Source of the DNA: a virus
Lineage: Duplodnaviria; Caudoviricetes
Length of the DNA: 64,000 bases
Reading direction: 5' to 3' (one strand)
Virus record (IMG/VR): IMGVR_UViG_3300021399_000099
Span: 32,001-96,000 of that record
Under the pieces are notes generated by a model. The model had not been told where the DNA came from, ran no database searches, and saw only the letters and a list, made by a program, of their open reading frames with translations. Below are positions 401 through 63,111 of the stretch, in pieces. How positions within the stretch are numbered: position 1 is the first letter of the stretch; every line of letters begins with the position of its first letter. A program made the translations under genes and the position numbers.

Positions 401-469
401 TTAACTTTAGCCCCGGAATTATTTTAATATACCCCGGTCTTGTGGCACGATTTTAGCATATAGTGTGGT

Positions 470-697
470 ATGAGCAGATATTACCATAGTTTTCCAAGGG
501 CTTACAAGAAACGCCCCATCTACACCGCCCTTTTTACCGAGGAGGACAAAGCCAAAATGGAGTACAACAAAAATATGAGTTTCCGCAAGTTCGTAGCCGA
601 GTGGAACGCAGATGCACCGGAGTTGCTGGGCTGGTCGTTACTTGATTTTTACAATGCCTTCAAAAAAGGTGGCGTGCAACTCGCATTTTCCTTTTAG
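470..697 (+). CDS. hypothetical protein
   Basis: ORF directly after promoter at 443. Confidence 0.7.
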   Translation: MSRYYHSFPRAYKKRPIYTALFTEEDKAKMEYNKNMSFRKFVAEWNADAPELLGWSLLDFYNAFKKGGVQLAFSF

Positions 698-737
698 TTT
701 GGCACGGAATATGCAATACTAATAGTGTAACCCCAAA

Positions 738-962
738 ATGAGCAACGAAATGAAATACATTGTCAATTCCCAAGACCACAAAGCAGTCAATCTCGCAAAC
801 GTTATAGGTATTTCCATATCCAACAACTACCTTATGTTGTCGCTGACCGATGGACGTGAAATGCGTTTCTTCTATGGCACTGAAAACGTGCTTAACGACC
901 TTTTCAGCCGGATTATGGACTTTATCGACGAGGACGGAACAAGTGTCCTTAACTGCAACTAA
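738..962 (+). CDS. hypothetical protein
   Basis: ORF after promoter at 700. Confidence 0.75.
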   Translation: MSNEMKYIVNSQDHKAVNLANVIGISISNNYLMLSLTDGREMRFFYGTENVLNDLFSRIMDFIDEDGTSVLNCN

Positions 963-991
963 ACTATTAAAACATTCTAAATCAGTTAATT

Positions 992-1465
992 ATGAAAAAG
1001 TTTTCCGTTACCATTGACCGCACAGTTCATCAAGCCCGTACCCTTACCATCAAGGCTGAAAACGAAGAACAAGCTTACGATGCCGCTGTGGATATTTCTG
1101 CTGAGGATGATGGTTGGGACGGTACGGAGTACGACACCACCTATGAAATCAAGTTGGAGGAAGTGCCCAACGACTACATTGACCGGGAGGGAAATCCCTA
1201 CGATGCGGACGATGACGAACACTGCTGGCCCGCTGGTGGTGGTCTGCATAAGGACTGCGAATACAACGCTGACGCCCTTTATGCCTACTATGTAGTTAAA
1301 GACCGCGATAAGATTTTCGCCTACCTCACCAACAAGTGTTTTTGGCTTGAAGATTGCCAGCGGGCGTTTGAGGTGTGGAGAAAGGGCAACACCAAAATCG
1401 TCTTTGAGAACTATGACACGCGTGCTGGACTTTGGGGCTATATGCACACCGAGTTAGACAAGTAG
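992..1465 (+). CDS. acidic hypothetical protein
   Basis: 157-aa ORF with A-rich leader. Confidence 0.8.
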   Translation: MKKFSVTIDRTVHQARTLTIKAENEEQAYDAAVDISAEDDGWDGTEYDTTYEIKLEEVPNDYIDREGNPYDADDDEHCWPAGGGLHKDCEYNADALYAYYVVKDRDKIFAYLTNKCFWLEDCQRAFEVWRKGNTKIVFENYDTRAGLWGYMHTELDK

Positions 1466-1557
1466 CGACCAGGCCGGGGTATATTAAAACAATCCCGGTC
1501 CCTCGCTTAAAAATCCGGAGCTGGAGTTTGGCACGCTTTTTGCAATAGTATAGAATG

Positions 1558-1684
1558 TAATGGGAAAGTTGAAAGTGGCGGAAAAGGCAGAGCCACGCAA
1601 AGGACGGATAAGGATTGACTAACTGCACCGAAAAGTAGTAGCGTAACACTCAGTAGGATAAACTTCAAACCCCGTCACCCATTT
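1558..1684 (+). ncRNA. candidate small structured RNA transcribed from promoter 1529
   Basis: No ORF. Ends pair (AATGGG/CCCATT, TTGAA/TTCAA); internal hairpin GTGGC/GCCAC with a D-loop-like GGAAAAGGCAGA. Confidence 0.3.
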
Positions 1685-1706
1685 TATTTATAAAAACACA
1701 AAGATT

Positions 1707-1910
1707 ATGACCCCAATTAAAATCATCAGTTCTATTTGTTTGGCTTTTTGCGTTGCCGGACTTCTCGTTGCCCTTATTGAAATTGTGATGAAGTTTGTTG
1801 GATTTATCGGTAAGTCAATAGCAAAAGAGCCGTGCAAGATAAGTATTGCCGGCGAACTTATTTTTGTTTTCATTTTTTCTTTCTTTATTGTGCTCTTTTT
1901 CATTATGTAG
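1707..1910 (+). CDS. small two-TM membrane protein
   Basis: Two hydrophobic segments; TAG overlaps next promoter. Confidence 0.7.
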   Translation: MTPIKIISSICLAFCVAGLLVALIEIVMKFVGFIGKSIAKEPCKISIAGELIFVFIFSFFIVLFFIM

Positions 1911-1949
1911 GCACGGGGTTTGCAATAGTATAGACAAAACACAAAGATT

Positions 1950-2129
1950 ATGAACCGCCATCAAATTGAAAACCTTATGCAGTCCCTCGCTATGTCGCAG
2001 GGCTTCTATGGCAGATTGCTTGACCAAATCTATTCCGCGCCCGAGGATGAGCAGGAAATGTTCTGGGAGAATATGGAAGCACAGAACTTCGGCTGTGACC
2101 TTGACGTTGTCCTCTTCCTTGAAAGTTAA
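1950..2129 (+). CDS. hypothetical protein, 59 aa (MNRHQIENLMQSLAMSQGFYGRLL...), absent from ORF track
   Basis: Hand-translated; follows promoter 1909. Confidence 0.75.
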   Translation: MNRHQIENLMQSLAMSQGFYGRLLDQIYSAPEDEQEMFWENMEAQNFGCDLDVVLFLES

Positions 2130-2150
2130 ACCAATAAAATATATCGCCAT

Positions 2151-2300
2151 ATGATTGCAACTATCATTATCGGTCTTGGTCTTTTCACCGCCACGCCCAA
2201 CATTCCAGCCACCAATGTCGCACCCAAACAGACCGCCATTGTCTTCGAGGACCAGCAGGCAATCTACAACATCCCTCCCAAGAAAAAGGGACGCAAGTAG
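2151..2300 (+). CDS. small protein, 49 aa, hydrophobic N-terminus
   Basis: Hand-translated MIATIIIGLGLFTATPN...KKGRK. Confidence 0.55.
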   Translation: MIATIIIGLGLFTATPNIPATNVAPKQTAIVFEDQQAIYNIPPKKKGRK

Positions 2301-2441
2301 TACGATGCTGGAGGGGGTATATTAAAAGTATGCCCCGCCCAATTTTAACGCAGACCCGATTTTTTTTTAATTTTTTCTCTTTAGCCGGATAGTGGCACAG
2401 GTTTTGCAATAGTATAGATGTAACCAAAAAACAATAAAGAT

Positions 2442-2669
2442 ATGAGACCTCTTTTCGAAATCGCCCGCGAAATCCGCAAGGACTGGAAGAATGTTTCCTA
2501 CTATGCCGCCCCCTACCTCAATGCTATGTCCTGTCTTAATAGCGTTGATGACAAGTACATTATGGACTCCGGTCGCTCCATTGTCGCCTATTTCCTCGCA
2601 AATGCCGGTTCTTGGCGTGGCGAGACCGCAAAACGCATCAAGGCAGAACTCAAGTCTATGGTCAAGTAA
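2442..2669 (+). CDS. phage hypothetical protein (IRKDW...PYL...FLANAGSWRGE)
   Basis: ORF after promoter 2393. Confidence 0.8.
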   Translation: MRPLFEIAREIRKDWKNVSYYAAPYLNAMSCLNSVDDKYIMDSGRSIVAYFLANAGSWRGETAKRIKAELKSMVK

Positions 2670-2728
2670 GTTTGGCACGCAATTTGCCTATAGTAGTACT
2701 GAAGTTTAACCATTAACCCCTTTTCGTT

Positions 2729-3037
2729 ATGAAGACCATCAAGAAATCTCTCCTTCTCCATCAGCTGGGTGCAGTCCAGTCCATCCGCAACCTCGTTTCC
2801 CCTCGTTCCTACCGCCCTGTCGCCAATCAGTTCGATGCGGTACATACCAACGGCATTTCATTTCAATCTTACAACTCGCTTATTGCGGTGCGTATGAACG
2901 GCTATCTCTACCTCACTGCTGACCACGACTACAGCAGAACCACCAGCAAATACTGCACCGAATGGACGGGTTTCTCCACGAAGGAACGCAGAGAGGGGCT
3001 GGAGTCCGGCAAGTTCATCGCAATCGTGGAGGACTAA
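2729..3037 (+). CDS. phage hypothetical protein (FQSYNS...DYSRTTSKY)
   Basis: ORF after promoter 2673. Confidence 0.8.
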   Translation: MKTIKKSLLLHQLGAVQSIRNLVSPRSYRPVANQFDAVHTNGISFQSYNSLIAVRMNGYLYLTADHDYSRTTSKYCTEWTGFSTKERREGLESGKFIAIVED

Positions 3038-3207
3038 GCCACAATGCCTGAAGACCCTGGGGGTATATTAAATGCTCCCAGGTCCTTGCGTTAAGCCCAG
3101 CTCCGGTTTGGCACGGATATTGCAATATCAAGTAATGGTACGCACTTGAGTACCTTTTGGCACGATAGTTGTTTATAGTATAGTGTAACCAATAAACAAT
3201 AAAGACA

Positions 3208-3525
3208 ATGAAAGGTTTTTACTACATTAAGAACTCCATTGACGAATTTCGCAGTGAGCCGAGTGTCTATGCTGAAACACTTGAAAAAGCAAAGGAAGCC
3301 ATCAAGTATTGTGCGGATTGGTATCTTTCGAATGGAACCGGCAGAATCTACTTTCAGCCGACAGAGTTTGAGGTGGTCGAATTGACCCAGGAGCCCAACC
3401 GATTTTTGGGTGAAACCGAGCCAGTCAAGTACAAACGCATCCGTCAGCCCAATGCGAAATTCATCTGCCGTGGAAAGGGGCTTGACGAGAACGGAGAGGT
3501 AATTTTCTCCGAGGAAGAATACTAA
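3208..3525 (+). CDS. hypothetical protein
   Basis: ORF after promoter 3158. Confidence 0.8.
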   Translation: MKGFYYIKNSIDEFRSEPSVYAETLEKAKEAIKYCADWYLSNGTGRIYFQPTEFEVVELTQEPNRFLGETEPVKYKRIRQPNAKFICRGKGLDENGEVIFSEEEY

Positions 3526-3574
3526 TGGCACGATAGTTGCAGTATAGATAGTGTAACCAACAAAGACAACGAGT

Positions 3575-3814
3575 ATGTATAGCAAGAAAGCAAAGATGAT
3601 GGTAGCCGAGCAGATTGTCGGTATGATTGAAAACAATGTGCTGAATGAGTGTAATATGGAGTCATTTATGGGCTGGCTTGAAAACGGAGATGCCTTCTAT
3701 GACGCCGATTGCTACACCGATGAGGAGATTGATGAGGCGATGGCTTTCGCATATCAAATCGCTGGTATTGTCGACACGCTTTCTTGGCATCTTGCGCCGG
3801 AAAGAGAGGACTGA
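3575..3814 (+). CDS. acidic hypothetical protein
   Basis: ORF after promoter 3526. Confidence 0.8.
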   Translation: MYSKKAKMMVAEQIVGMIENNVLNECNMESFMGWLENGDAFYDADCYTDEEIDEAMAFAYQIAGIVDTLSWHLAPERED

Positions 3815-3861
3815 TGGCACGATAGTTGCATATATCATAGTGTAACCAAAAATCAACGAGT

Positions 3862-4323
3862 ATGTACGGAGAAGAAAAAATCATCGGCAAGAAGGTCAAT
3901 CTCTTGGAGAAGGTTGGCATCTGCGATTGGAAGATGACTGATGAGGTTTGCGAAATCGTGTCGGTTGTTCCGTGGTCGCAGGAACTGAACGATTGGTGTC
4001 AGCACTATATCGTAAGAAAACCGGACGGAACCGAAGTTGAAGTCCGTGAGTGCGAGTGCGTGTTCTCCCCCAACACCGAAAAGCCTGCCGACTATATGGC
4101 ACACGACTTTCTCAATGACAATGGGGTGTGGGCAGATGTTTGGCATCACTACGGAACTTCCGCCCTTGTGGTCAGCATTGAGTGGGGGGATTGGCGTCAT
4201 TCCCATTTGTGGGCAAAGACCCTTATGGAATACCTCGGTTATGTCAAGGTAGGCGAGGTTGTTACGGAGGAAGACGGAAGTGATTGCTATTCAGCGGAAC
4301 ACTACTTCATTAAAGCGGTGTAA
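3862..4323 (+). CDS. hypothetical protein
   Basis: ORF after promoter 3815. Confidence 0.8.
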   Translation: MYGEEKIIGKKVNLLEKVGICDWKMTDEVCEIVSVVPWSQELNDWCQHYIVRKPDGTEVEVRECECVFSPNTEKPADYMAHDFLNDNGVWADVWHHYGTSALVVSIEWGDWRHSHLWAKTLMEYLGYVKVGEVVTEEDGSDCYSAEHYFIKAV

Positions 4324-4460
4324 ATACTTGAAGGTCTGGGAGTTATGGGGTTCTCCCGGGCCTCGAGTTAAGCCATCGCCCAGCATTATTTTAATATACC
4401 CCGGTCTTGTGGCACGATAGTTGCTTATAGTATAGTACAACCAAAAAAAAAACATCAGTT

Positions 4461-5198
4461 ATGAGAGAGAACGAATACCTTATCAACACCATTCAGGAAA
4501 TCACCTTGCAAGCCTACGCTTTCGGCATTTATGACTATTTCTCCAACGAAAGGGATATGTCAAGAACGCATATCTTCAAAATCTTCGTTGAGTGGGCAAA
4601 GGAGTTTGAGGAAACCCATAAAGACTTTGATTGGATGCAGGGTTCTTTCTATGACGAGGTGGATGATTTCCTCACGTGCCGTTTTGACTCAATCAAAATC
4701 GAAGACAAGGTTAGGGACGCTTTCCCCGGTGGCATCACCAAAGGTGACCACATTTCCTATGAGGGTGGCATTTTCAAAATCACCGGCTTCACTGAAAGTG
4801 GTATTTTGGTCAAGGAAATCGGCGGGACGCTTGATAGTGAGTGGGAAACAACCGAAATCGGGTTCTCACAAAACTACAAGGTGATAATCCTCCCGGACTA
4901 CGAGGAAGTTATGGACACCACCAATGGACACAACCCGGAACTTGTAGCGAAAATCAACAACGCTTGGAACGAAAAACGCGAGCAGTTCTTCCCCATTCTT
5001 TGTGCCCTTTACAAGAGGGACAATGACGAAATCCTTGCGAGCGATGCGTTTGCTGATTGGAAGAAAGTCAGCAAGGACTACGACACCCTTTACGAGTATA
5101 TGGAGGCGAATTGGGACATTGAGGCATACAACTACCTGCAACACATAGCGGACGATACCGACTTGGAGTGCATCCTCAACTACCTGCACGCTCAGTAA
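4461..5198 (+). CDS. hypothetical protein, 245 aa
   Basis: ORF after promoter 4410, flanked by inverted bipartite elements. Confidence 0.85.
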   Translation: MRENEYLINTIQEITLQAYAFGIYDYFSNERDMSRTHIFKIFVEWAKEFEETHKDFDWMQGSFYDEVDDFLTCRFDSIKIEDKVRDAFPGGITKGDHISYEGGIFKITGFTESGILVKEIGGTLDSEWETTEIGFSQNYKVIILPDYEEVMDTTNGHNPELVAKINNAWNEKREQFFPILCALYKRDNDEILASDAFADWKKVSKDYDTLYEYMEANWDIEAYNYLQHIADDTDLECILNYLHAQ

Positions 5199-5307
5199 AA
5201 GAAGTGCCCGGGGTATATTAAAACTATCCTGGGTCTTGCTTTAAGCCGCCTTGCAGTTTGGCACGATAGTTGCTTATAGTATAAGTGTAATCAAAAAACA
5301 ACAAGAT

Positions 5308-5544
5308 ATGGCAAAGAACACTCTCAAATGGCTTGAAACCGAATACTGCGGAAAAGCTGACACCACTATCCAACCAGTTCTCGTCAATGACATCCTTCTC
5401 TACACCCTCTTTGACAACAGGGGTTTCAATTACGTTTTCACAACCATCTATGCAATCCACCTTCATTTGTCGGGTTTTGTCAATCAGTACGAATTCACCT
5501 GCGGGAGTGAGGAGGATTTGATTGAATATCTTGAAAACTGCTAA
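5308..5544 (+). CDS. hypothetical protein
   Basis: Start moved to ATG 5308 downstream of promoter 5259. Confidence 0.75.
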   Translation: MAKNTLKWLETEYCGKADTTIQPVLVNDILLYTLFDNRGFNYVFTTIYAIHLHLSGFVNQYEFTCGSEEDLIEYLENC

Positions 5545-5556
5545 AAAGACAAGAAT

Positions 5557-5802
5557 ATGAAAATGTTTTACATTATTTCGTGTGACGACCTTTGGGAGTT
5601 CCTGGAAGATACCGAGTGCCCAAAGGAAATAATCGAAGACACTGATTTTGATAGTGTCAGCGACGAGCAATACAAGGAAGCTGTAAATGCCCAAGGGTGG
5701 ATTCTTCCGCTTGACCGCTTCGTGGAGGCATTTAACGAAGATAACGACCTCTGCCCCACGCCCTCATACCACTACATCAGGGTTTTTGACAAGGAAAGTT
5801 AA
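5557..5802 (+). CDS. acidic hypothetical protein
   Basis: ORF with A-rich leader. Confidence 0.75.
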   Translation: MKMFYIISCDDLWEFLEDTECPKEIIEDTDFDSVSDEQYKEAVNAQGWILPLDRFVEAFNEDNDLCPTPSYHYIRVFDKES

Positions 5803-5864
5803 AAACAACTAAGTTTGGCACGTATCTTGTAATATAAAGGGTGTAACCGATAAAGAAACAAGTT

Positions 5865-6176
5865 ATGACCGAAAAAGATTCCAACGCCACGTGGCAGAAT
5901 AAACTGATTGACGATATGACTGACGAAGAACTCCGGGAATTCAAAGACCACTGCTTTGACGAGTATGAGAAAACCGGGTTCATTGAAAAGTTCGATTCCC
6001 CGTATGACGATATCGGTGGGGGAGAGCACGAACACAACGGAATGACTTTCAAGGTTATCCGCAGAGCCACCACCGAGGAGGTCGATATCGAGGTTATGCC
6101 CGTGTGGCTTGTCGAGTTCGAGAACGGAGATACCGCTTATTGCTACCCGGAAGAAATCTGCAAATTAGAACACTGA
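5865..6176 (+). CDS. hypothetical protein
   Basis: ORF after promoter 5816. Confidence 0.8.
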   Translation: MTEKDSNATWQNKLIDDMTDEELREFKDHCFDEYEKTGFIEKFDSPYDDIGGGEHEHNGMTFKVIRRATTEEVDIEVMPVWLVEFENGDTAYCYPEEICKLEH

Positions 6177-6305
6177 GTTTTGTGCAACTGCCTTATTTCC
6201 AGGTGGTTGCACCATTTGTTAAGCCGGAGCCACCCAGCATTTTAATATACCCCCAGGAGTTTGGCACAGGATTTGCAATATAGTATAGTGAAACCAATAA
6301 AGACA

Positions 6306-7100
6306 ATGAATATGAACTCCACCGAAATCAAGACCCTCGCCACCAAGATGTTCAACACCACCAAGAAGAACCTCGCTGATGCCCGCAAGTACAACAAGGA
6401 CAACAAGACACGCAAGGCCCAGCAGGTCAATATTTCCGTATATGACCACGATTATTGGAAAGGCAACACCCGCACCACCGAATACTATGCCTTCAATGTA
6501 GATGGCAAGGAAATCGGTAAATGCACTTACCGGAGCGACATTGAAAGTGTGTTCCGTGAGTTTGGACATATGCTGGATGCACAAAAGAAAGTCAAGGGTT
6601 GGGGCGGACTGAACTACGCCAACGATAAAATCACGTTCAATGTTGGGACGTGGGGCGGCTATTCCGTCAAGTTTATCCCGAAGGTGTGCCTTGCAGATGC
6701 TCCTTGCAGTGAATACAAGTCGCTGATGAACTTTATCAACAAGCACGGCAAAACCACCTATTGGGGTTCGACCTATGGGGCAGTCAATCTTGACAACTAT
6801 GAACTTTTTTCCGCAGCTATGGGTGGCAAGAGGGGTGTCCTTTGGGACGAATATGGCGAGCGGGTTTTCATTGACAACAAGCCGAAGAAGTGTGCCCGTC
6901 TGCTTGAAGAACTCCGCAAGACAAGAGGGTCAAAGGACATTATGATTTGCGAGAGGGGCGAGGAGAACTACATTGACCCCGAGGATAGGACATACTCCGA
7001 AAAGTATGAGATTGAGTGCGAGGGCGAAAAGCACAAGTACCTGAAAATCACTATCAAGACCCCCACCGGAAAGGTCAAGTACGAAACCAAAATCTTTTAG
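6306..7100 (+). CDS. basic hypothetical protein
   Basis: Start moved to ATG downstream of promoter 6262. Confidence 0.8.
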   Translation: MNMNSTEIKTLATKMFNTTKKNLADARKYNKDNKTRKAQQVNISVYDHDYWKGNTRTTEYYAFNVDGKEIGKCTYRSDIESVFREFGHMLDAQKKVKGWGGLNYANDKITFNVGTWGGYSVKFIPKVCLADAPCSEYKSLMNFINKHGKTTYWGSTYGAVNLDNYELFSAAMGGKRGVLWDEYGERVFIDNKPKKCARLLEELRKTRGSKDIMICERGEENYIDPEDRTYSEKYEIECEGEKHKYLKITIKTPTGKVKYETKIF

Positions 7101-7104
7101 AGAT

Positions 7105-7263
7105 ATGAACCCGTTTGAAAAGGAAGAACTTGAAAGGGCGTTGAACAATCCATTAGTGGATGTGTATCATATGCTCCCGCACTACACCATTGAAACCTAT
7201 TCCACCGGACAAGATAAACGCAGGGCACGCAGAAAGCAGGAAAGGAAAAACAAAAAGAAATAA
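7105..7263 (+). CDS. hypothetical protein, 52 aa
   Basis: Hand-translated; fills gap up to promoter 7267. Confidence 0.55.
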   Translation: MNPFEKEELERALNNPLVDVYHMLPHYTIETYSTGQDKRRARRKQERKNKKK

Positions 7264-7314
7264 GTTTGGCACGTAGTTTGCAATATAGATAGTGTAACCA
7301 AAAACAATACTGAT

Positions 7315-7452
7315 ATGACAACTTACGAAGAAATGCACGTCCTTTTTGACGAACTTACCGAGGGAGAGCAGGTTGATATTATGGTTGATTTCTACTACAC
7401 TATGCGGGATTCGCAGAAAGACAAGTTCCTCCGCGAAACAGAAAATGCTTAA
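7315..7452 (+). CDS. hypothetical protein, 45 aa
   Basis: Hand-translated MTTYEEMHVLFDEL...; follows promoter 7267. Confidence 0.65.
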   Translation: MTTYEEMHVLFDELTEGEQVDIMVDFYYTMRDSQKDKFLRETENA

Positions 7453-7465
7453 AAACCAATAAGTT

Positions 7466-7888
7466 ATGGCATACATAGTTATTCAGTGGCCCGATATCCA
7501 GCACTATATGGACTTGCAAGGTTTTGAGGAAAACTCCTACCTCATTAACGATGAAAAGGGAATGAACGATTTTGGCAGTTCCGCCTACTTTGTAGATGAG
7601 GAATGGCTGAACGAACTCGACCCAATGGGCATAGTCGAAGGTGTCGTAGAAGATTGCCTGCACACCCTTGAAGATGGTGAGGAATACGAATTCGAAACTC
7701 CCATCGAACTCTCCAACAACCTTATCGCTACAAAGTTTTGGGCAGATGACGGAAACGAAGATGTCCGTGTGGAAGTTTGGCAGACCTACCCGGATAAATC
7801 GTGGCGAGATGATATGTTCCTTTCCTCTATGGAAACCAAAGACGCGATTAAGGTCGCCAAAGCGATTAACGCCTATTGGGATTGTTAA
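7466..7888 (+). CDS. hypothetical protein (YxxxxWPxxQxxM...FGxxxYFVxEE domain)
   Basis: N-terminal domain paralogous to 7915-8079. Confidence 0.8.
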   Translation: MAYIVIQWPDIQHYMDLQGFEENSYLINDEKGMNDFGSSAYFVDEEWLNELDPMGIVEGVVEDCLHTLEDGEEYEFETPIELSNNLIATKFWADDGNEDVRVEVWQTYPDKSWRDDMFLSSMETKDAIKVAKAINAYWDC

Positions 7889-7914
7889 GTTAAACCATTA
7901 AAAACTAAATAGTT

Positions 7915-8079
7915 ATGGGATATGTAAAAGTTATGTGGCCCGAAAGCCAGGCACTTATGTCACTCACTGACGAAGAAATGGAAGAGTACGGAATTGAGTT
8001 TGGCGAGGATTGCTCCTATTTCGTGCCGGAAGAGGATTACGAAGAGATTTTCAATCTTGCCGAATCGAAATTTGACTGA
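7915..8079 (+). CDS. 54-aa paralog of the N-terminal domain of 7466-7888
   Basis: Hand-translated MGYVKVMWPESQALM...FGEDCSYFVPEE. Confidence 0.7.
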   Translation: MGYVKVMWPESQALMSLTDEEMEEYGIEFGEDCSYFVPEEDYEEIFNLAESKFD

Positions 8080-8188
8080 ATGATGCTGGGCGGGGTATAT
8101 TAAAACACCACCGCCCTTCAAGCTAAACCCGCGTCAGTTTGGCACAAGATTTGCATATAGTATAGTGTAACCAAAAAACAACAAGATT

Positions 8189-8791
8189 ATGAACGAAATC
8201 ATCGCAAACGACCTCCACACCCTCCTCGCCCACAACATTGTTTATTTCACTTACCGCAAGGTCAATGGAGAAATCCGCCACGCAGTAGGGACACGCAACC
8301 TTACCCTTGCGGAGAACTACACTTCGCAGTTTATCGCCCGTCCCCTTGGTGCTGAACAACCGAACTCCTACTATGACGTGGAGAAAATGGGGTGGCGGTC
8401 TTACAAGCCGGAAAACCTCATCAGCATTGACCGCGTGAATGACTTTGACTATGCCACCTCAGAGCCTATTCAGCAGACCAAAAAGGGCGAACTCCCCAAA
8501 AGGGAAATCCCTATCAACAAACCTATGGGGAATGGTGGTGCTGACATTGACAAAATCCTCGGTAGCATCTTCGGTGGTTTCGGTATGCCTATGGGCGAAA
8601 TCCGCAAGTCAATGGAAGATTTGGACAAGGACATCGTAATCGGTGCTCCGGCTCATAGTCCAAAAGTCGGCACTCCCACCGCAACGGAAAAGGGGATTGA
8701 ACTCCCTCTCAACGGAATTTCCGTAGAGGACTTCGCCAAAATGGTGGCTCACTATGTGGTGGAGGAAATTGTTTCACGTATAAAGGGTTAA
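8189..8791 (+). CDS. SH3/WYL-like beta-barrel protein (DUF2693/WYL_2-type) with low-complexity tail
   Basis: FTYRKVNGEIRHAVGTRN...YYDVEKMGWRSYK motif. Confidence 0.65.
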   Translation: MNEIIANDLHTLLAHNIVYFTYRKVNGEIRHAVGTRNLTLAENYTSQFIARPLGAEQPNSYYDVEKMGWRSYKPENLISIDRVNDFDYATSEPIQQTKKGELPKREIPINKPMGNGGADIDKILGSIFGGFGMPMGEIRKSMEDLDKDIVIGAPAHSPKVGTPTATEKGIELPLNGISVEDFAKMVAHYVVEEIVSRIKG

Positions 8792-8795
8792 TACT

Positions 8796-8927
8796 ATGAC
8801 TGTTTTAGAGCAAAGGTTTATGGAGCAAGTCCCACGCCTTTTGAGGGACGTTGCAAACGAAGTGGCTGAACTCCGCAAGGAGATTGCCGACTTGAAGGAA
8901 CAACTGAAAACCGCTAAAAGCGAGTAA
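8796..8927 (+). CDS. small coiled-coil protein, 43 aa
   Basis: Hand-translated MTVLEQRFMEQVPRLL...VAELRKEIADLKEQL. Confidence 0.65.
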   Translation: MTVLEQRFMEQVPRLLRDVANEVAELRKEIADLKEQLKTAKSE

Positions 8928-9044
8928 TCCAGCACCGGACGGGGGTATATTAAAATGCTCCCGTTCAATGCGTTAAGCCGACCTGGAGTTTGGCACGGCT
9001 TTTGCAATATAATACACTGAAACAACAAATAAAGACAATATCTT

Positions 9045-9257: not shown

Positions 9258-9451
9258 TACAACCATAAAAATTAAAACTATGTTTGAAGCTGTTACGTTT
9301 GGGGATATTATCCTTGACCTTTGTGTTGTGGCATTTCTTTTCGCCATCGTTTCCTGCTGGGCATACATTTTTTCTCCGGAAAACAAGGATGATGAATAGT
9401 CCGGCATGCATTTTGCTTATAGTATAGTGTAACCAATAAAACGAAAAAGAT

Positions 9452-13538: not shown

Positions 13539-13541
13539 GAT

Positions 13542-55054: not shown

Positions 55055-55226
55055 ATTTATTCTTGTGCGAACGGCATCTTGCTTATAACCTCACCTTCGA
55101 GTGTCAGGACCACATACAATTTGTCATAACCCTCGTATTTCCAGTTAATTTTGAGGTTTTCTTTCAAATATTGTTTCAGTTCTTTCTTATCCATATATGT
55201 AATATTGTTACAAAAACCGTGCCAAA

Positions 55227-56435
55227 CTACATGTTAAGCCCGTAATATTTGGCACGGCAATAAATGGTAAGGTCATTGACGAAATCCTTATCAACCTCGT
55301 CCGGCAGATTGCTCTTAGGAAGATTTTCATTTACATCAGCAAGAAGTTTCTCCGCATAGTCAATAAGATACTCGTAAGTATAATCACCATTTTTGATACC
55401 CATAAGGAAATCACGGTCATCAGTTCTCCAGAGATTGAAACCCTTACCCTCGGAGATTTCCTTGGCCATAGTGAGAAGACGTATGCAATGGCACATGTTC
55501 TTCTGGTTATAACCAGCCTCAACCGCCTTGGAATAACGCTTCTGGTTACGCTTCTCAACCCACTCCTGATACTCCTTATACTCACGGCAATGGCATGTAT
55601 AGGCGTCCTTGTTATAAGTCATGAAGCAAATAGGAACCTCACCCTTTGGAATCGAGGACAGACGCACCTCATTGGATTTCTCAATATCTTCCGGATAAAC
55701 GATACCGGAATAGTGGAAGAATTCTTTATTGTCAATCCTATATTCAATCTTACGGAGAGTATATTCATAATCACCGCCATGATACCAATTTTTCAGGATA
55801 CTATACCTATCAAGAGCACTATCAATCCCTTCAAACTTAAAGTATGCAGCGAAGTCATAATAAACTCCATACACATCTTTCATATTCGGGATACTAACAA
55901 GGCCACAATATCTCTGGTCAAGATTATGCTCTTTAAGCCATTCCTTAATCGGCTGGCTTCCCTGGTTCTTAAAGGTGTAGCAGAAATCCAGCACGTCCTT
56001 ACGCTCGGTTACCGGATTCACAATCTTCTTCCCGAGACCACGAGCCTTCTTAATCTGGTTGAAAGCGTAACCGGAAAGGGACTTGACAACCTCTTTGGAA
56101 ACGAACTTGTCCCTGTTTTTAAGAACTTCACGAATTACCGGATGAACATCCCCGACAGTAAGTCCGTCTGGCACAAAGAGACTCTCCAGTGCATTCGGGT
56201 TACCTTTACTGAGAAGGGTCATCCACTTGCCGAACTCATGATATGTCTCGTCATGCTTCTCGTCGGAAACCTCCTCCTGGTAGTCTGCACCAAGACCGAT
56301 GAGTGTAGCCAACGGAGCAAAATATACACCGTGATAGTCGATATCGCTGTCTGGACCGTCGAGATTCTGACTATGACTGCCAGCAACATACTTGTAACCA
56401 ATAAGGCCTTTCTCCTCAATATCTTTAATCGTCAT
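55227..56435 (-). CDS. DNA-pol-beta-superfamily nucleotidyltransferase (YcgL/RlaP-like)
   Basis: GSHS...SDIDYHGVY, KGNPNALESL, KNMCHCIRLL, LMGIKNG. Confidence 0.85.
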   Translation of the reverse strand: MTIKDIEEKGLIGYKYVAGSHSQNLDGPDSDIDYHGVYFAPLATLIGLGADYQEEVSDEKHDETYHEFGKWMTLLSKGNPNALESLFVPDGLTVGDVHPVIREVLKNRDKFVSKEVVKSLSGYAFNQIKKARGLGKKIVNPVTERKDVLDFCYTFKNQGSQPIKEWLKEHNLDQRYCGLVSIPNMKDVYGVYYDFAAYFKFEGIDSALDRYSILKNWYHGGDYEYTLRKIEYRIDNKEFFHYSGIVYPEDIEKSNEVRLSSIPKGEVPICFMTYNKDAYTCHCREYKEYQEWVEKRNQKRYSKAVEAGYNQKNMCHCIRLLTMAKEISEGKGFNLWRTDDRDFLMGIKNGDYTYEYLIDYAEKLLADVNENLPKSNLPDEVDKDFVNDLTIYCRAKYYGLNM

Positions 56436-56443
56436 AATAAATC

Positions 56444-56809
56444 TTATTTAAATCTAATACCTTGTTTTTCAAGGGCTTCTTTGTTTTTAGCGACAAGGAC
56501 CCAGTTTTTATATATTTCCTGGTACTGACGTTCATGCTCCGGACAACAGGCATTAATTGTTGAACTCTTTTTGACAAAAATCGTTTCGCAACCCGGTATG
56601 CAGCAAATGTGTGATGAACCAATCTGGTCGTCCTCGCATATCTGGTGGGCTCTTACTATATAGGAGGCGTCATTGCGAGGGGATTCAGAGTCTTCAATGT
56701 AGGTTTTAACTCCGCCTACAAAGCAATGAATAATAAATACAAGAGCAATAATCCCCAAGCCAACACCAATACCAATTTTTACAAAAAGATTAACAATCCG
56801 GAAAATCAT
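56444..56809 (-). CDS. membrane-anchored Zn-finger-like protein
   Basis: N-terminal TM; C..PGC...CC..H. Confidence 0.7.
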   Translation of the reverse strand: MIFRIVNLFVKIGIGVGLGIIALVFIIHCFVGGVKTYIEDSESPRNDASYIVRAHQICEDDQIGSSHICCIPGCETIFVKKSSTINACCPEHERQYQEIYKNWVLVAKNKEALEKQGIRFK

Positions 56810-56863
56810 AATAAAAATAATTTAATGTTTCTGGTATAGTATATTACAAAAACCGTGCCAAAC

Positions 56864-57541
56864 TTACTTTGCATCCGGATGTTTTGCCTTAAAAGCCTCA
56901 ACTGCAGCATGCACATCTTCACGGTTGTCGTAATAGCCCTCATCTCCAACCAGATAGCAAAGAGCCCCATGCATGAAAGGGAAAAGCTCGGTCTGGAAAA
57001 GCATCGTGTAGGCAAATGAAACCGCCATAGAACCGGAATTTCCACTGTGCCCATCGTTCCACTTATCATAGCCAGCCTTCTTTATCCCATCAACGAATTC
57101 AAAAGCATCCTTACCATCGCCGAAAGTGTCCCACATTTCCAGTTCTTTACCTGGATAAGTGCCCAAAAACCAATATGCAATGTTTTCAGCCTCGTTAATT
57201 ACACTCATCTCATAGTTGTACAGTGGAGAAGGGGCAGAGGGACGTTTTTCCCAAAGAGCCTGGATTTCCGGGTCCCTTTCGTTCTTAAGTTCCCAATTAT
57301 CGCACTCTCTATCCCAGCACGCTTTAAGATATTCATCATCGTTTTCGTAACCAAGTTCCTTGCACCTTGCCTGAAGCCTGGGATTATATACCTCTTCCCA
57401 TTCCCGCATCTTGTCCTCATACCTCACCCGTTCAATTTCCGGCTCTTCCTCAAACGTGTATCCCAGGGCTTTGAACCACAATTTGTTAAACCTTTCAATA
57501 CGCGCCTTTATGGCGTCTTTAATCTCTTCTTTTGTTGTCAT
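56864..57541 (-). CDS. hypothetical protein (GHSGNS motif)
   Basis: ORF after promoter 57575. Confidence 0.8.
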   Translation of the reverse strand: MTTKEEIKDAIKARIERFNKLWFKALGYTFEEEPEIERVRYEDKMREWEEVYNPRLQARCKELGYENDDEYLKACWDRECDNWELKNERDPEIQALWEKRPSAPSPLYNYEMSVINEAENIAYWFLGTYPGKELEMWDTFGDGKDAFEFVDGIKKAGYDKWNDGHSGNSGSMAVSFAYTMLFQTELFPFMHGALCYLVGDEGYYDNREDVHAAVEAFKAKHPDAK

Positions 57542-57591
57542 ATTTTTAATCTTTAAGTTTTGTTTGTATATTCTACAAAAACCGTACCAGA

Positions 57592-57837: not shown

Positions 57838-58306
57838 CTTTTTTTGTCAAGTACTTTTTAGATAGCGTTTTGATTTGTTTCAACATTTTTTCAAGGGCGG
57901 ACATAAACTCTTCTTCGTCAATAACTTGAATCGAGTCAATCATTTTTTCAAACTCTTCTTTTTCGGAAGAAAATATGTCAAATTCATACATATAGCTCCA
58001 GTTCCAATCCGTGGCGTCATAATATCCGGTAAATTCACCCCCGAACCCAAACCCACGGATTCTGCAGTTATAATCAAAGTTTTCATATCTAAACGAGTCA
58101 TCTACCCAATTAACATGTACGTAATGGGTATATCCATCTTCTTCGTACTTTATGAATTGTCCCTTCAGCCCAACTGGTAATGCCTGCTGCCGCTTTAGAT
58201 TGTGTAATTTTTTTCTTAGGTCAATTGCCTTTTCCCAAGCGGCATCATATTCTTTTTCAAGTGCTTCTATTTCAGAAACATCTACTTTCTTTACATACTT
58301 TCCCAT
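57827..58306 (-). CDS. hypothetical protein
   Basis: Start moved to MGKYVKK. Confidence 0.75.
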   Translation of the reverse strand: MGKYVKKVDVSEIEALEKEYDAAWEKAIDLRKKLHNLKRQQALPVGLKGQFIKYEEDGYTHYVHVNWVDDSFRYENFDYNCRIRGFGFGGEFTGYYDATDWNWSYMYEFDIFSSEKEEFEKMIDSIQVIDEEEFMSALEKMLKQIKTLSKKYLTKKDEE

Positions 58307-59364
58307 TTCTTGTCTTTTTGATATTTTCCAAACAACCCGAAAGTACACATTGAAGCAAAGATAGGCTTGTTAAGGTTGTATTGTTTGATAAGTTCTTTTG
58401 GCGTTACATCCATCTTTCCGTCCGTAATCTCCTCACCACAAACAGTTTCAACTACATAATCAATCTCACTTCTACCAATACAACAGGCAACCGACACTTT
58501 GACCGCCTGATTCGTTTCCTTTGCATATTTCCTTGCCATCTCCCTTGCGAAAAGATTCAGTGTGAGGTCTGCCTTTGAACCATCCTTAGTCCATGGGGAA
58601 CCGCCTCCGACATGCAGCTCACCGCCATAAAAATCAACGACGAGCTTCCTACCGGTAATACCACAATCGGCAATCGGACCGTGCATCACATAGTTTCCGG
58701 TTCCATTCAAAATAATATCGGGGTGCAGCGAAGAATCGGTTTTCAATGTATCGTACCAGTTGAAGATACTTTCCATAACTTGTGCATATTCCCCGTCATT
58801 TCTACAAGGTACTGCGGCGATAATTTTCTCAATCAGCCCATCCTTATCAAGAATGATTTCCGTCTTTATGTCTATACCACCGATGCCTTTGTCCTTTGCC
58901 TGCGTATAAAGCATATGGCACAGGTCTTTAGCCAATGAGTGAGAACGGGGGGTCATATATTCCTCATCTGGTTCAGCATAGCCAAAGAATATACCCTGGT
59001 CCCCCCATCCGTCCTTATTTACTCCTTGGCTGATATCAGGACTTTGCTTTGTTATGTCTGTCTTTATTGTGATGAAACTTGGGTTTATGACGTTATGTCT
59101 GCCCCAAGCTTTCCAATATTCCTCAGTGTATCCGATTTGCTTTATTGCGTCACTAACAAAACAGACATATTGTTCGTCTGTAAAATCTGCTGTGCTCGTA
59201 ATTTCCCCCGCCAGATGGACCATATTTCCCTTAATCATAACCTCAACGGCATATCTAACATTCGGGTCCAGTTCAAGGTATCTGTCAAGGATGTACTCAC
59301 TGATGTAGTCCGCTACCTTATCCGGATGCCCTGGACTTACATATTCACTAAATTTTCTTGTCAT
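58291..59364 (-). CDS. metK: S-adenosylmethionine synthetase
   Basis: SEYVSPGHPDKVAD, QSPDI, GDQG, G.TGRKLVVDFYG, GGG...KD.SKAD. Confidence 0.92.
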   Translation of the reverse strand: MTRKFSEYVSPGHPDKVADYISEYILDRYLELDPNVRYAVEVMIKGNMVHLAGEITSTADFTDEQYVCFVSDAIKQIGYTEEYWKAWGRHNVINPSFITIKTDITKQSPDISQGVNKDGWGDQGIFFGYAEPDEEYMTPRSHSLAKDLCHMLYTQAKDKGIGGIDIKTEIILDKDGLIEKIIAAVPCRNDGEYAQVMESIFNWYDTLKTDSSLHPDIILNGTGNYVMHGPIADCGITGRKLVVDFYGGELHVGGGSPWTKDGSKADLTLNLFAREMARKYAKETNQAVKVSVACCIGRSEIDYVVETVCGEEITDGKMDVTPKELIKQYNLNKPIFASMCTFGLFGKYQKDKKWESM

Positions 59365-61134: not shown

Positions 61135-61137
61135 AAA

Positions 61138-61365
61138 TCAATCTCTTAACTTGGAAGTTTGCAACTTGCCGGTCCGTACATCATAATAAAACCCCGGGAA
61201 ACGTTCATCCGTCAGTCCGCTATCAATAAGAATGTCCCGGATTCGACACCAAGGGCATTCCTGGAACATTTTTATGATGGTGTTGGCTTCTTCTTCCGTG
61301 GGGACTCTGCCGTCCTTTAATCTATTTTCTTGCCAAGCACCCCAATCAAACTTTTTAGTTTTCAT
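61138..61365 (-). CDS. hypothetical protein
   Basis: ORF. Confidence 0.65.
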   Translation of the reverse strand: MKTKKFDWGAWQENRLKDGRVPTEEEANTIIKMFQECPWCRIRDILIDSGLTDERFPGFYYDVRTGKLQTSKLRD

Positions 61366-61613
61366 CAGTAATCAAAATTAAATTGTTCGTCCAATCGTAA
61401 GTCTTCATGCGTTCCAATATACTTCTCCATCCACTCTTCATATGGATAGGCTTCCCTTATAATGAGCTTCGGAGTACCGGAATAGGCCGCTTCATAGTGA
61501 GGCCCGTAAGATTTATCTTGTATAAGGTTCAGGTCACGCATCCTTACCCAGGCCCCATTTTCCCCGATGTGCTGGTTCCACGCTATCGCGTTTTCAATGT
61601 ATTTCGGTTTCAT
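61365..61613 (-). CDS. hypothetical protein
   Basis: ORF. Confidence 0.65.
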   Translation of the reverse strand: MKPKYIENAIAWNQHIGENGAWVRMRDLNLIQDKSYGPHYEAAYSGTPKLIIREAYPYEEWMEKYIGTHEDLRLDEQFNFDY

Positions 61614-62124
61614 TTTCACGATTCAAAATCTTTATGGCCTTGTCAATGTCGGACTGGATTAAACCTGTAAGTCTATTTGTGCGGATGAAGTTATCTTTTT
61701 GACCCAGAAGGAAGTCACTGTCATCATCGAAGATAACATATTCATAATCAACATCTTCCTCTTTGAAATGCTTCCTGTAATAAGGGAAACCATTGTCATC
61801 CAGTCCATATCTGGTGCCCATTCCGCCAAAGTTGTCCTGTATCCATTTTTCAATCTCGTTCCCCCTGGTCAGCCAATCCTGGTAGAAATGGTCGGTGCAG
61901 CCAATTATCGGAAGTTCAAGCCCAACATCCTGCAGTGGCTTAATACCACTTTCTCCCCAACTGGAACTTATGACAACCTCGGCTCCGATGTCTTTTAGTT
62001 GGTTAAGGAGTGCAATGGCTTCGGGGTCAAAATCTCCGAACTTACCCCTTGTCTTGACATACCACTGCTCACTATTAACTACAGAGTCGATATCCAAAAA
62101 CACTATCTTTTTCCAGTCGCCCAT
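61594..62124 (-). CDS. HAD domain of Swiss-Army-Knife RNA-repair type (HAD_SAK_2-like)
   Basis: FLDIDSVVN, VVISSSW, RGNEIEKW, YVIFDDDSD. Confidence 0.8.
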   Translation of the reverse strand: MGDWKKIVFLDIDSVVNSEQWYVKTRGKFGDFDPEAIALLNQLKDIGAEVVISSSWGESGIKPLQDVGLELPIIGCTDHFYQDWLTRGNEIEKWIQDNFGGMGTRYGLDDNGFPYYRKHFKEEDVDYEYVIFDDDSDFLLGQKDNFIRTNRLTGLIQSDIDKAIKILNRENETEIH

Positions 62125-62125
62125 G

Positions 62126-62350
62126 TCAATCGTAATCTACCATGCACCAGCAGTTAGGGTCATGTACAAAACCGGTATAGTTGTCATAACCAGGAATATT
62201 CCGATAAAACTCAATATACTGGTGCTCTTCAAACATAAACTTTCTTGCGTAAATCTTTGTCCCGTCATCACCATATACGGCTTTCTGTGTATCCGGTTTG
62301 CATCCAAGCAGCAAAATGCCCGTAAAAATCATTGCTATCAGCTTTTTCAT
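62126..62350 (-). CDS. lipoprotein, paralog of 42026-42340
   Basis: LLLG-C lipobox; FEEH...VHDPNCWC. Confidence 0.75.
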   Translation of the reverse strand: MKKLIAMIFTGILLLGCKPDTQKAVYGDDGTKIYARKFMFEEHQYIEFYRNIPGYDNYTGFVHDPNCWCMVDYD

Positions 62351-62368
62351 ATTCGTAAAATTTTTAAA

Positions 62369-62800
62369 TTATTCAATACGTTTTCCAACGACTTTCATGT
62401 GAAGTTCGCTGAAATCACCATTCACAATCAGCGAGCCCCACTTGAAAGAATCCGTAATGTCCTGTCCGATTGTAAGTTTATTATAATAGTCTTTATTAAC
62501 CGGGATTTCTATCTCAATGGAATTCATCTCGTTCTTGGCGTGTTCAAGAATGTCAAGCGTAAAAGTGCCCTGCTTGATTTTGAATTTGACGATGTACTTG
62601 ATTTCTTTTCCGGTCACCAGAGAATTCTTCTGAACTTTAAGGTCGTGAATCTCCGTGTTAAGAGCACTTACCTGCCCCTGGAGATGTTGCTTTTCGCTGG
62701 CAAGACTTTTACATTCCTGCTGCAGTCTTGCCCGGTCTTCGTTCGTATAGCAAGACACTGATAGAATTGCGATTAACGCGAGTACGATGAACTTTTTCAT
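62369..62800 (-). CDS. lipoprotein with coiled coil
   Basis: SVS-C lipobox. Confidence 0.75.
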   Translation of the reverse strand: MKKFIVLALIAILSVSCYTNEDRARLQQECKSLASEKQHLQGQVSALNTEIHDLKVQKNSLVTGKEIKYIVKFKIKQGTFTLDILEHAKNEMNSIEIEIPVNKDYYNKLTIGQDITDSFKWGSLIVNGDFSELHMKVVGKRIE

Positions 62801-63078
62801 TTTCTTTTTATTTTTTTGTGGTTTTCAAGTTTTCTTTCGTAATCAGGGTCGTTTTCGTTGGGCTCTTCGCAATACTGTTTTCCATCTTTTGCAAAAGCAT
62901 ATACCTGGCTTATTTCTTCAAGGCGCTCGGGGAATTCAGCTTCTTCTTCCCTCATAACCCTTTCAAGGGCCTCCCTCTCCTTATTACGGAATGCTTTGTG
63001 GGAAGCCTCCTTGTCCTTCTTCTCGCTCTCAGCACCTGTCCAGCCGCCGTAAGCGTTTTTCTTGTAACTTTTTCCCAT
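62797..63078 (-). CDS. charged hypothetical protein (MGKSYKK...SEKKDK...FAKDGKQY)
   Basis: ORF after promoter 63095. Confidence 0.75.
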   Translation of the reverse strand: MGKSYKKNAYGGWTGAESEKKDKEASHKAFRNKEREALERVMREEEAEFPERLEEISQVYAFAKDGKQYCEEPNENDPDYERKLENHKKIKRK

Positions 63079-63111
63079 AGCTATATAACGTATTACAAAT
63101 ATCGTGCCAAA

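Follow-up and report, generated by a model that had tools for sequence, protein, structure and literature searches.

The stretch analyzed here, called the window throughout, comprises 64,000 nucleotides (nt) of a virus of the Caudoviricetes and corresponds to bases 32001-96000 of a 216,910-bp IMG/VR contig (IMGVR_UViG_3300021399_000099). Along it recurs a short box, TGGCAC-N5-TTG(C/T), which has the form of a bacterial sigma54 promoter core and is the subject of this study. CheckV rates the contig as 61% complete, so that the full phage genome probably measures about 350 kb. Positions refer to the window unless they are marked as genome positions, which count along the whole contig.

The GC content of the window ranges from 37 to 47%, and the coding strand switches near 27-30 kb, between a left and a right arm. 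Proteins of the left arm are mostly ORFans, with the exception of a WYL_2 protein (open reading frame, ORF, 8189-8791) and a SprT-like protein (ORF 9811-10512). The large ORFs mostly remained without assignment in PHROGs and Pfam, and structural and replication modules could therefore not be assigned. Within the window, Rfam matched no family and ARAGORN called no tRNA. A megablast search against GenBank phages gave no match to a phage; near-identical or related DNA is present in rumen, goat, sheep, and bovine gut metagenomes. One RNA run, represented by its assembled contigs only, contains an identical piece of 225 nt inside ORF 3862-4323 and further pieces of about 90% identity.

Number, spacing, and placement of the boxes

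The exact pattern TGGCAC-N5-TTG(C/T) occurs 41 times in the window, against 0.16 occurrences expected; with one mismatch allowed, 60 sites are found against 6 expected. A position weight matrix (PWM) built from the sites yields 53 window hits, 42 on the plus and 11 on the minus strand, two of the latter (23604 and 50390) being weak. This is in good agreement with the preliminary description of this DNA, which had counted about 42 plus-strand and 9 minus-strand motifs. Over the whole contig, the same PWM gives 85 hits, compared to 0.33 per shuffled genome. With a relaxed pattern, the contig total is 69. The plus strand accounts for 42 of these, at genome 30-58 kb; a divergent group of three on the minus strand lies at genome 28.0-29.6 kb, a single minus-strand match at genome 48.2 kb is intragenic, and the remainder are on the minus strand at genome 65-183 kb. 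None lies at genome 0-28 kb or 184-217 kb.

Spacing is nearly invariant. A spacer of N5 is found in 62 sites, while every other spacer from N2 to N9 occurs in only 0-2, and the GG and GC doublets are exactly 10 bp apart, as the GG-N10-G(C/T) rule proposed earlier demands. The boxes sit at gene junctions and are co-oriented with the downstream gene, which likewise bears out the earlier account: downstream of 63 of the 69 contig sites, a same-strand ORF of 35 amino acids (aa) or more begins, with its ATG at a median of 34 nt past TTGY. About 20 sites start 0-6 nt past the preceding stop codon, which itself belongs to a TAA/TAG-GTT-TGGCAC context. With 42 sites in 25.6 kb, the left arm carries one box per approximately 610 bp (about 600 bp had been stated). 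Some boxes head tRNA arrays, and the 5' end of a tRNA-Arg(cct) lies 16 nt past one site.

For the individual cores, we give the PWM score, the distance from TTGY to ATG, and the ORF. The plus-strand series begins with a near-leaderless TTAGC variant at 443-457 (22.5; 12 nt; ORF 470-697), followed by 700-714 (22.8; 23 nt; 738-962), by 1529-1543 (31.5), which has no ATG-started ORF within 130 nt, by a degenerate AGGCAC copy at 1909-1923 (15.9; 26 nt; 1950-2129), and by 2393-2407 (20.9; 34 nt; 2442-2669) and 2673-2687 (28.6; 41 nt; 2729-3037). The boxes 3109-3123 (26.3) and 3158-3172 (24.2; 35 nt) stand in tandem before ORF 3208-3525, and 3526-3540 (19.0; 34 nt; 3575-3814) directly follows the upstream stop. 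Further downstream lie 3815-3829 (19.5; 32 nt; 3862-4323), 4410-4424 (22.9; 36 nt; 4461-5198), 5259-5273 (29.2; 34 nt; 5308-5544), 5816-5830 (27.1; 34 nt; 5865-6176), 6262-6276 (31.6; 29 nt; 6306-7100), 7267-7281 (26.8; 33 nt; 7315-7452), 8140-8154 (30.6; 34 nt; the WYL_2 gene), and 8991-9005 (32.6; 39 nt; 9045-9257). A degenerate CGGCAT core with an exact leader at 9402-9416 (17.9; 35 nt; 9452-9757) precedes 9762-9776 (27.4; 34 nt; the SprT-like gene), 10594-10608 (26.4; 34 nt; 10643-11077), and 11103-11117 (24.5; 34 nt; 11152-11511).

TGGCAT takes the place of TGGCAC at 11514-11528 (22.9; 35 nt; 11564-11896), 12585-12599 (22.9; 35 nt; 12635-13042), and 15298-15312 (23.8; 46 nt; 15359-15640), and CGGCAC at 13045-13059 (25.7; 26 nt; 13086-13538). 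Among and beyond these are placed 11971-11985 (31.0; 23 nt; 12009-12272), 12279-12293 (24.6; 33 nt; 12327-12581), 13759-13773 (26.8; 35 nt; 13809-14018), 14104-14118 (26.6; 34 nt; 14153-14839), 14899-14913 (28.4; 23 nt; 14937-15293), 15643-15657 (32.9; 34 nt; 15692-16489), 16611-16625 (21.6; 31 nt; 16657-17196), 17227-17241 (26.4; 27 nt; 17269-17775), 18103-18117 (29.2; 38 nt; 18156-18560), 18563-18577 (31.1; 37 nt; 18615-18959), and 19148-19162 (31.3; 34 nt; 19197-19574). The series ends with 20020-20034 (29.4; 37 nt; 20072-20431), 20434-20448 (31.9; 61 nt; 20510-21169), 21224-21238 (30.0; 35 nt; 21274-21495), 22599-22613 (29.4; 30 nt; 22644-22832), 25437-25451 (28.6), where no ATG-started ORF follows within 130 nt and a non-coding product is possible, and 25610-25624 (30.1; 105 nt; 25730-26134).

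On the minus strand, boxes are found at 36371-36385 (31.4; 47 nt; ORF 34695-36323, DUF2828/DUF7788, Ro60-like), 41565-41579 (33.4; 33 nt; 41235-41531), 42374-42388 (25.6; 33 nt; 42026-42340), and 49191-49205 (32.3; 34 nt; 48842-49156, then the Thg1-like ORF 48084-48842). A TTTGA variant lies at 52763-52777 (19.8; 12 nt; 52595-52750). The box 55210-55224 (29.2; 15 nt; 55057-55194) is the closest upstream promoter of a gene run ending in a sigma gene at 52842-53705, and 56846-56860 (33.5; 36 nt) precedes ORF 56444-56809 and then the RlaP-like ORF 55227-56435. A degenerate TGGTAC core at 57575-57589 (19.3; 33 nt; 56864-57541) and 63095-63109 (29.5; 16 nt; 62797-63078) complete the set. The two weak hits are doubtful: 23604-23618 (14.5, with the upper edge of the null at 15.7) has no ORF downstream, and 50390-50404 (15.6) lies inside the CCA-adding-enzyme gene 49222-50637 without an ORF start. 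An exact match at 33262-33276 (minus) stays under the PWM threshold, has no ORF downstream, and probably arose by chance.

Several of the minus-strand genes form an RNA/tRNA toolkit, mostly in box-headed operons, which consists of the Ro60/TROVE-like gene, Thg1, the CCA-adding enzyme with its HD domain, RlaP, and a SAM synthetase (58291-59364). In bacteria, the rsr-rtcBA RNA-repair operon depends on sigma54.

Anatomy of the element and predicted position of the start site

Conserved information extends over (A)GTT-TGGCAC-G-N4-TTGC-A, followed by a weaker WATATA and by AACC about 15 nt past TTGC. Three of these positions were not forced by the search pattern: T before TGGCAC (0.73-0.89), G after it (0.67), and A after TTGC (0.78). 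The consensus that Barrios et al. are said to have given for sigma54 promoters in 1999 reads mrNrYTGGCACG-N4-TTGCWNNw, and the unforced flanks agree with its Y ahead of TGGCAC, its G behind this block, and its W next to TTGC. Three other phage contigs with these boxes, described below, display the same flank preferences. Sequence, flanks, and geometry thus all support the identification of the core with the RpoN -24/-12 consensus that had been made at the outset. Blocks one helical turn apart are the sigma54 arrangement, unlike the spacing of the sigma2 and sigma4 contacts of sigma70 factors. The "shared leader" TAGTATAGTGTAACC is real as well, being present in 15 plus-strand sites (6 exact, the others with up to 3 mismatches) against 1.3 expected; it marks this subset and is not universal. 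The extended motif including the leader found no match in IMG/VR.

Roughly 22 of 45 left-arm sites come after a hairpin or repeat element, and the others abut the previous gene. Terminator-like hairpins abut many boxes: GGTACgcacttgaGTACC with its T run occupies 3137-3154 (plus) next to box 3158 and recurs at 11082-11099, upstream of box 11103, and at 17205-17222, abutting box 17227. A second kind of hairpin (3053-3084, plus; minimum free energy -25.6 kcal/mol, z -2.6) has the conserved loop GTATATTAAA on a covarying stem and is followed by TTAAGCC. Of the 19 contig copies of the GTATATTAAA-type repeat, 18 fall within genome 27-49 kb, and about 17 adjoin promoters. It comes in two forms. The GTATATTAAA form, with hairpin loop, covarying G/C stem, and then TTAAGCC, is found at 1479, 2317, 3063, 5213, 8095, 8945, and 14854; in the TTTAATATAC form (423, 4390, 6241, 10574, 11950, 14084, and 16570), the AT-rich word is turned around while TTAAGCC keeps its orientation, and the terminator hairpin in front is a separate one. 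Near the arm junction, four ORF-free stretches of about 150-400 nt (22833-22979, 23397-23793, 26338-26553, and 27262-27660) gave no Rfam match; one of them contains a tRNA-like 3' half (GGTTCAAATCCCTCCACC) that ARAGORN did not call.

The repeated box itself might act at the level of RNA or recombination, as a processing site, a translation enhancer, or a point of cassette exchange, and not as a promoter. Cassette joints of related phages do fall at the box copies, as any repeated sequence would bring about, and the A-rich part of the leader may help translation where the host makes no use of Shine-Dalgarno sequences. An invariant spacing around a free N4-5 spacer is, however, typical of protein-DNA recognition, the box has no conserved fold and no Rfam match, and with terminator-like hairpins upstream, transcripts would otherwise stop there. 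We regard a purely RNA-level or recombinational role as highly improbable; the boxes are almost certainly promoters, as judged from their sequence and placement.

The genes closest to their boxes constrain the predicted start site. The smallest gaps between TTGY and ATG are 11, 12, 15, and 16 nt, and in these four genes the next in-frame ATG follows only 29-45 codons further on, which would place the start site within about 12 nt of the GC. If the C of GC is taken as -12, the A of one ATG is exactly +1, and no ATG lies nearer than 11 nt. Such a start would fit sigma54 geometry and not a downstream -10 hexamer.

Transcription factors encoded by the phage

The preliminary description had found no sigma54 gene and no gene of a bacterial enhancer-binding protein (bEBP) in the window, and extending the search does not alter this result. 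Over the 217-kb contig, the RpoN domains PF04552, PF04963, PF00309, and TIGR02395 gave no match, and no GAFTGA motif occurs in any of the six frames. The RNA polymerase families PF00940, PF00562, and PF00623 gave no match in the contig either, with the PF00940 control itself unmatched. A contig of 344 kb, 93% complete and equipped with the same boxes, has neither RpoN nor a bEBP. The suggestion of a phage sigma54 or of a phage-borne activator is hence not borne out, while the earlier view of the boxes as promoter-like elements with an RpoN-consensus core is supported, with one box per gene.

Two candidates were rejected. A PF00158 match at genome 5106-7742 (plus), considered as a bEBP, belongs to an 878-aa ClpB/ClpA-like double-AAA chaperone, and a presumed mini-sigma54 in the 344-kb contig (weak rpoN/Sigma54_DBD match, E 0.07-0.19) is a DUF6794 protein, from a family whose N-terminal domain has the paralogues described below. 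A ClpB/ClpA-like chaperone of its own would be of note if the phage diverts the heat-shock route of host sigma54.

Sigma factors of the sigma70 family, which the preliminary description had missed, are encoded twice. The window gene, 52842-53705 (minus), specifies 287 aa with regions 1.2, 2, and 4 (Sigma70_r2 2.5e-16, r4 1.8e-13) and is RpoS/RpoD/RpoH-like by NCBIfam, under the equivalog cut-offs. The second, at genome 206847-207557 (minus; 236 aa), is also RpoS/RpoD/RpoH-like with regions 1.2, 2, and 4. Homologues of the sigma occur in three other IMG/VR contigs with 51%, 39%, and 30% identity; a pattern search from the sigma protein alone found no relatives. Promoters of the Bacteroidota sigmaA type (TTTG-N17-21-TAnnTTTG) are not enriched in the 217 kb (4 against 5.5 expected).

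In addition, a domain of about 130 aa starting with MITEDYVSFETAKLLKEKGF has approximately eight paralogues, at window 38482-46240 (minus), genome 139018-139401, and genome 158091-158450. One paralogue (window 45530-46240) is fused to a DUF6794 domain, to which a protein of the 344-kb phage shows 73% identity.

A second motif, CTATTTAT, likewise missing from the preliminary description, resembles a promoter of a different class. At 28434-28441 (plus) it lies 24 nt before the ORF 28466-29959 (497 aa); other window copies are at 22140, 26973, and 36484 (plus), and about 20 further copies of the class are spread over the contig, e.g., at genome 23221 (minus), 106767 (plus), and 203235 (plus). In its longer form the motif reads aaCTATTTAT(a). 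The contig has 35 copies against 17 expected, and large genes without a box (1121, 1297, 796, 768, 749, 711, 591, 502, and 497 aa) carry the motif 16-35 nt upstream of their ATG. It is plausible that this class represents late promoters served by the phage sigmas.

Occurrence of the boxes in other phage contigs

A pattern search of IMG/VR revealed three further contigs with the same boxes (80.7 kb, 94.5 kb, and 344.6 kb). The 80.7-kb contig contains 25 exact sites, or 50 under the relaxed pattern, along with similar leaders of the type TGTAAACCAAT and the same GGTACTC...GAGTACC hairpins. In the 344.6-kb contig (IMGVR_UViG_3300028048_000039, 93% complete), the boxes are clustered at 188-209 kb, with leaders of 55-65 nt and TATTAnTG 6 nt past TTGY. 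GGAGG ribosome-binding sites follow these boxes, for which reason this phage probably infects a host of another phylum; the observation suggests that the same promoter type is used there as well. Homologues of the sigma are encoded by the 94.5-kb contig (51%) and the 344-kb contig (30%), the latter with tandem boxes about 190 nt upstream of its sigma gene and with a shared DUF6794 family. The contig whose sigma is 39% identical contains no more than 2 boxes over 136 kb. Comparing five site-set logos from the four phage contigs, the sigma54-type core is the sole block common to all.

Tandem consensus boxes were identified in at least 120 IMG/VR contigs. A Sigma70_r2 match is present in only five of 33 such contigs that were examined, and in 2 of the 15 among them with a completeness of 90% or more; a bEBP domain was found in none of the 33. 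In general, therefore, the boxes do not go together with phage sigma genes, and this speaks for a universal reader supplied by the host.

The probable host and its sigma54

A BACON domain in a 1301-aa protein, Fib_succ_major in the adjacent 749-aa protein, an epimerase/dehydratase-family gene (Pfam GDP_Man_Dehyd) whose best matches are nearly all from Bacteroidota, and A-rich leaders without Shine-Dalgarno sequences together point to a host that probably belongs to the Bacteroidota, order Bacteroidales. RpoN is present in 120 of 121 sampled Bacteroidales genomes. The strict pattern TTGGCACG-N4-TTGCW is at chance level in 61 genomes of the order (9 matches against 9 for the reversed control). 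Sigma54-type boxes of the form TTGGCA(C/T)-N5-TCGC/GTGA/TTGA precede 10 of 12 groES genes, and sigma54-type boxes also stand before one hsp20 and one lon gene of Bacteroidales. Upstream of the groES and hsp20 boxes, at 35-90 nt, lie TTTTGTCA/TGACA repeats, a candidate enhancer of a heat-shock sigma54 regulon in the order. The position of these host boxes is in line with a 2025 prediction study, in which chaperone and protease COGs are enriched in the sigma54 regulon of Bacteroidota (PMC12316311).

One Bacteroidales genome stands apart (G050, 2.0 Mb; contigs C1, C5, C6, C14, and C21), with five strict boxes compared to 0-1 elsewhere. One of them is TTGGCACGATAGTTGCA, the commonest spacer version of the phage, and several precede small secreted or periplasmic proteins.

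The strict form TGGCACG-N4-TTGCW, slightly less demanding than the pattern applied to the host order, has 27 matches in the phage contig (124 per Mb). Set against the chance level in the 61 Bacteroidales genomes, this abundance would also suit a sink or roadblock, in which host sigma54 holoenzyme, bound to the boxes in closed complexes, would be withdrawn from its own regulon (probably that of heat shock), so that this is shut off, or would insulate genes, with transcription coming from elsewhere. That neither an activator nor an enhancer was found, that the phage has its own ClpB-like chaperone, and that dense tandem boxes occur in many other phages would all be compatible with such a role. 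A sink, however, needs no co-orientation, no fixed distance of 34 nt to the ATG, and no position after a terminator or before a tRNA array, and no other promoter class is on offer for these approximately 80 genes. We consider it improbable that the boxes serve mainly as a sink. Titration of host RpoN by the array, which had been raised in the preliminary description, is plausible in view of the numbers.

Which polymerase reads the boxes

The host sigma54 holoenzyme is the most likely reader, since the core is of the RpoN type and no phage sigma54, RNA polymerase, or enhancer-binding ATPase was found; from the sequence, we rate this assignment as rather probable. Several points weigh against it. 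To open DNA, a sigma54 holoenzyme depends on an AAA+ activator, and the contig encodes none. The TGTCA element of the host type (TTTTGTCA/TGACA) is absent upstream of the phage sites and neither enriched nor clustered anywhere in the contig. The A-rich conservation downstream of the core (WATATA, AACC) is no known sigma54 feature. The order of the host was itself deduced from phage sequence, and the missing part of the 61%-complete contig could hold a sigma54 or activator gene. Finally, the phage carries two sigma70-family sigmas, and a sigma70 reading of the box, TTGGCA-N16-TATAGT, reaches a score of 10 of 12 at about 15 sites of the left arm.

The last two points lead to an alternative reader, namely a phage factor that would be either one of the sigma70-family sigmas, possibly brought in by the virion, or an activator of the MotA type binding TGGCAC-N5-TTGC and pairing it with a -10-like TATAnT further downstream, the likeness to sigma54 being convergent. 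It would dispense with the AAA+ activator, two sigma genes are at hand, and their homologues recur in two other box-bearing contigs (51% and 30%). Yet boxes are scarce (2 in 136 kb) in the contig with the 39%-identical sigma, and 13 of 15 near-complete, unrelated box-bearing phages have no sigma70-family gene. With regard to the DNA, TAnnnT is common 1-4 nt past TTGY, and the AACC 15 nt past TTGY could be the start site. The offsets of TAnnnT, however, cluster at 16-19 (spacer 11-14) or scatter, and neither the right arm nor the other three contigs show a fixed offset that would suit a spacer of 16-18 bp. Genes with an ATG 11-12 nt past TTGY are, in addition, out of reach for a start at 13 nt or more. 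The sigma70 reading TTGGCA-N16-TATAGT was rejected as a general description, as it fits about 15 left-arm copies but fails in the remaining site sets; its spacer would have to accommodate TTGC, which ranks second in conservation among the blocks. Chance identity to 12-13 positions of the sigma54 consensus is, moreover, very unlikely. A phage-encoded reader hence appears unlikely to us, albeit less so than a sink.

Exchange of gene cassettes at promoter copies

Contigs of related phages from three DNA runs (rumen, goat, and bovine) reveal at least 8 joints at promoter copies. They connect cassettes that are not adjacent in the window: 3103->9758 (at box 9762), 4403->12580 (at box 4410), 6315->15637 and 6283->7103 (both at box 6262), 8178->11511 (at box 11514), 1547->12611, and 11991/12313. 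Within window positions 1-20000, related phages thus exchange gene cassettes at the promoter repeats.

A proposed transcription programme

We propose the following programme on the basis of host-read sigma54 promoters. The boxes would be the main promoters of the non-structural genes, about 85 per 217 kb, standing before nearly every small gene of a "hyperplastic" arm of 28 kb; further boxes would head the tRNA/RNA-repair operons, the tRNA arrays, and the gene run ending in a phage sigma gene. Transcription is predicted to start 11-12 nt past the GC, giving leaders of about 22 nt and a few leaderless mRNAs. In the host, sigma54 may represent a stress-linked and possibly high-capacity route; the stress link is suggested by the boxes before groES, hsp20, and lon and by the predicted chaperone regulon (PMC12316311). 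The phage sites lack the upstream TGTCA element of the host, and the closed complex would therefore have to be opened by an activator acting from solution or by an undescribed phage factor. Among the box-driven products would be the sigma70-family factor of the phage, which then probably serves the CTATTTAT class on large, presumably structural genes. The promoter copies, often with a terminator hairpin, would at the same time provide patches of homology for cassette swaps.

In its complete form, this programme is tentative, and we would sooner expect parts of it to need revision than all of it to stand: the phage would run its early and accessory genes, tRNA arrays, and sigma-gene run on core-only sigma54 promoters, capture a sigma54 polymerase of the heat-shock type, have it opened without an enhancer-bound activator, thereby starve the stress regulon of the host, and use the promoter as a point of cassette exchange as well.

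An absolute dependence on an activator driven by ATP is the defining trait of sigma54 transcription, and the usual picture of phages has them rely on sigma70 or on polymerases of their own. Approximately 85 super-consensus sigma54 sites without activator or enhancer would imply either a new way to fire the sigma54 polymerase or a takeover of the host stress regulon on a large scale. This would help to explain the many sigma54-type arrays in uncultivated phages, and it would offer compact orthogonal promoters for the engineering of Bacteroidota. Fragments of 60 bp together with a Bacteroides sigma54 constitute a concrete and cheap test system.

Comparison with known systems

With the -24/-12 promoters of bacterial sigma54, the phage boxes share the core, the GG-N10-GC spacing, the flank preferences, and the placement upstream of genes, and the probable host order has RpoN as well as similar boxes at groES, hsp20, and lon. 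They differ in abundance, as there are about 85 near-consensus copies in 217 kb of phage DNA while the strict consensus remains at chance in 61 genomes of the host order. They also differ in the lack of an enhancer-like site and of an activator gene, in the AT-rich block right after the GC, and in leaders that are very short or missing.

T4 has phage-specific promoter classes that form a cascade, among them the middle (MotA box) and the late ones (TATAAATA, gp55). Standing before large genes, the CTATTTAT class is reminiscent of a late promoter that consists of a -10 element only and is served by a phage sigma. The sigmas encoded here are, by contrast, full RpoS/RpoD-like proteins and not gp55-like. 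No homologue of MotA or AsiA turned up in the phage, none having been searched for.

The arrangement of the left arm is closest to the PeSL elements of T4-type phages, in which a terminator stem-loop and a promoter lie between small ORFans and cassettes are swapped at the repeats (PMC2839356, PMC4122927). Composites of stem-loop and promoter likewise stand between nearly every small ORFan of the plastic arm, and the related genomes compared here also differ by swaps jointed at promoter repeats. PeSL promoters are, however, sigma70 early promoters, whereas those of the phage have a sigma54-type core and their -35/-10 reading is not conserved. Since phage lineage and host phylum are unrelated to the T4-type, our findings would extend the idea of promoters as shuffling points to an unrelated lineage.

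The sole published phage case of a sigma54-type promoter that we found, overlooked in the preliminary description, is that of the Pseudomonas phage YuA (Ceyssens et al. 2008, cited in PMC10914365, where the phage is also re-mapped). YuA is likewise a lytic phage with a promoter of the host sigma54 type and no sigma54 of its own. The re-mapping study lists one sigma54-like region (P015) beside sigma70-like and phage-specific ones; here, in contrast, the sigma54 type dominates a giant genome and heads most of the early-like and accessory genes.

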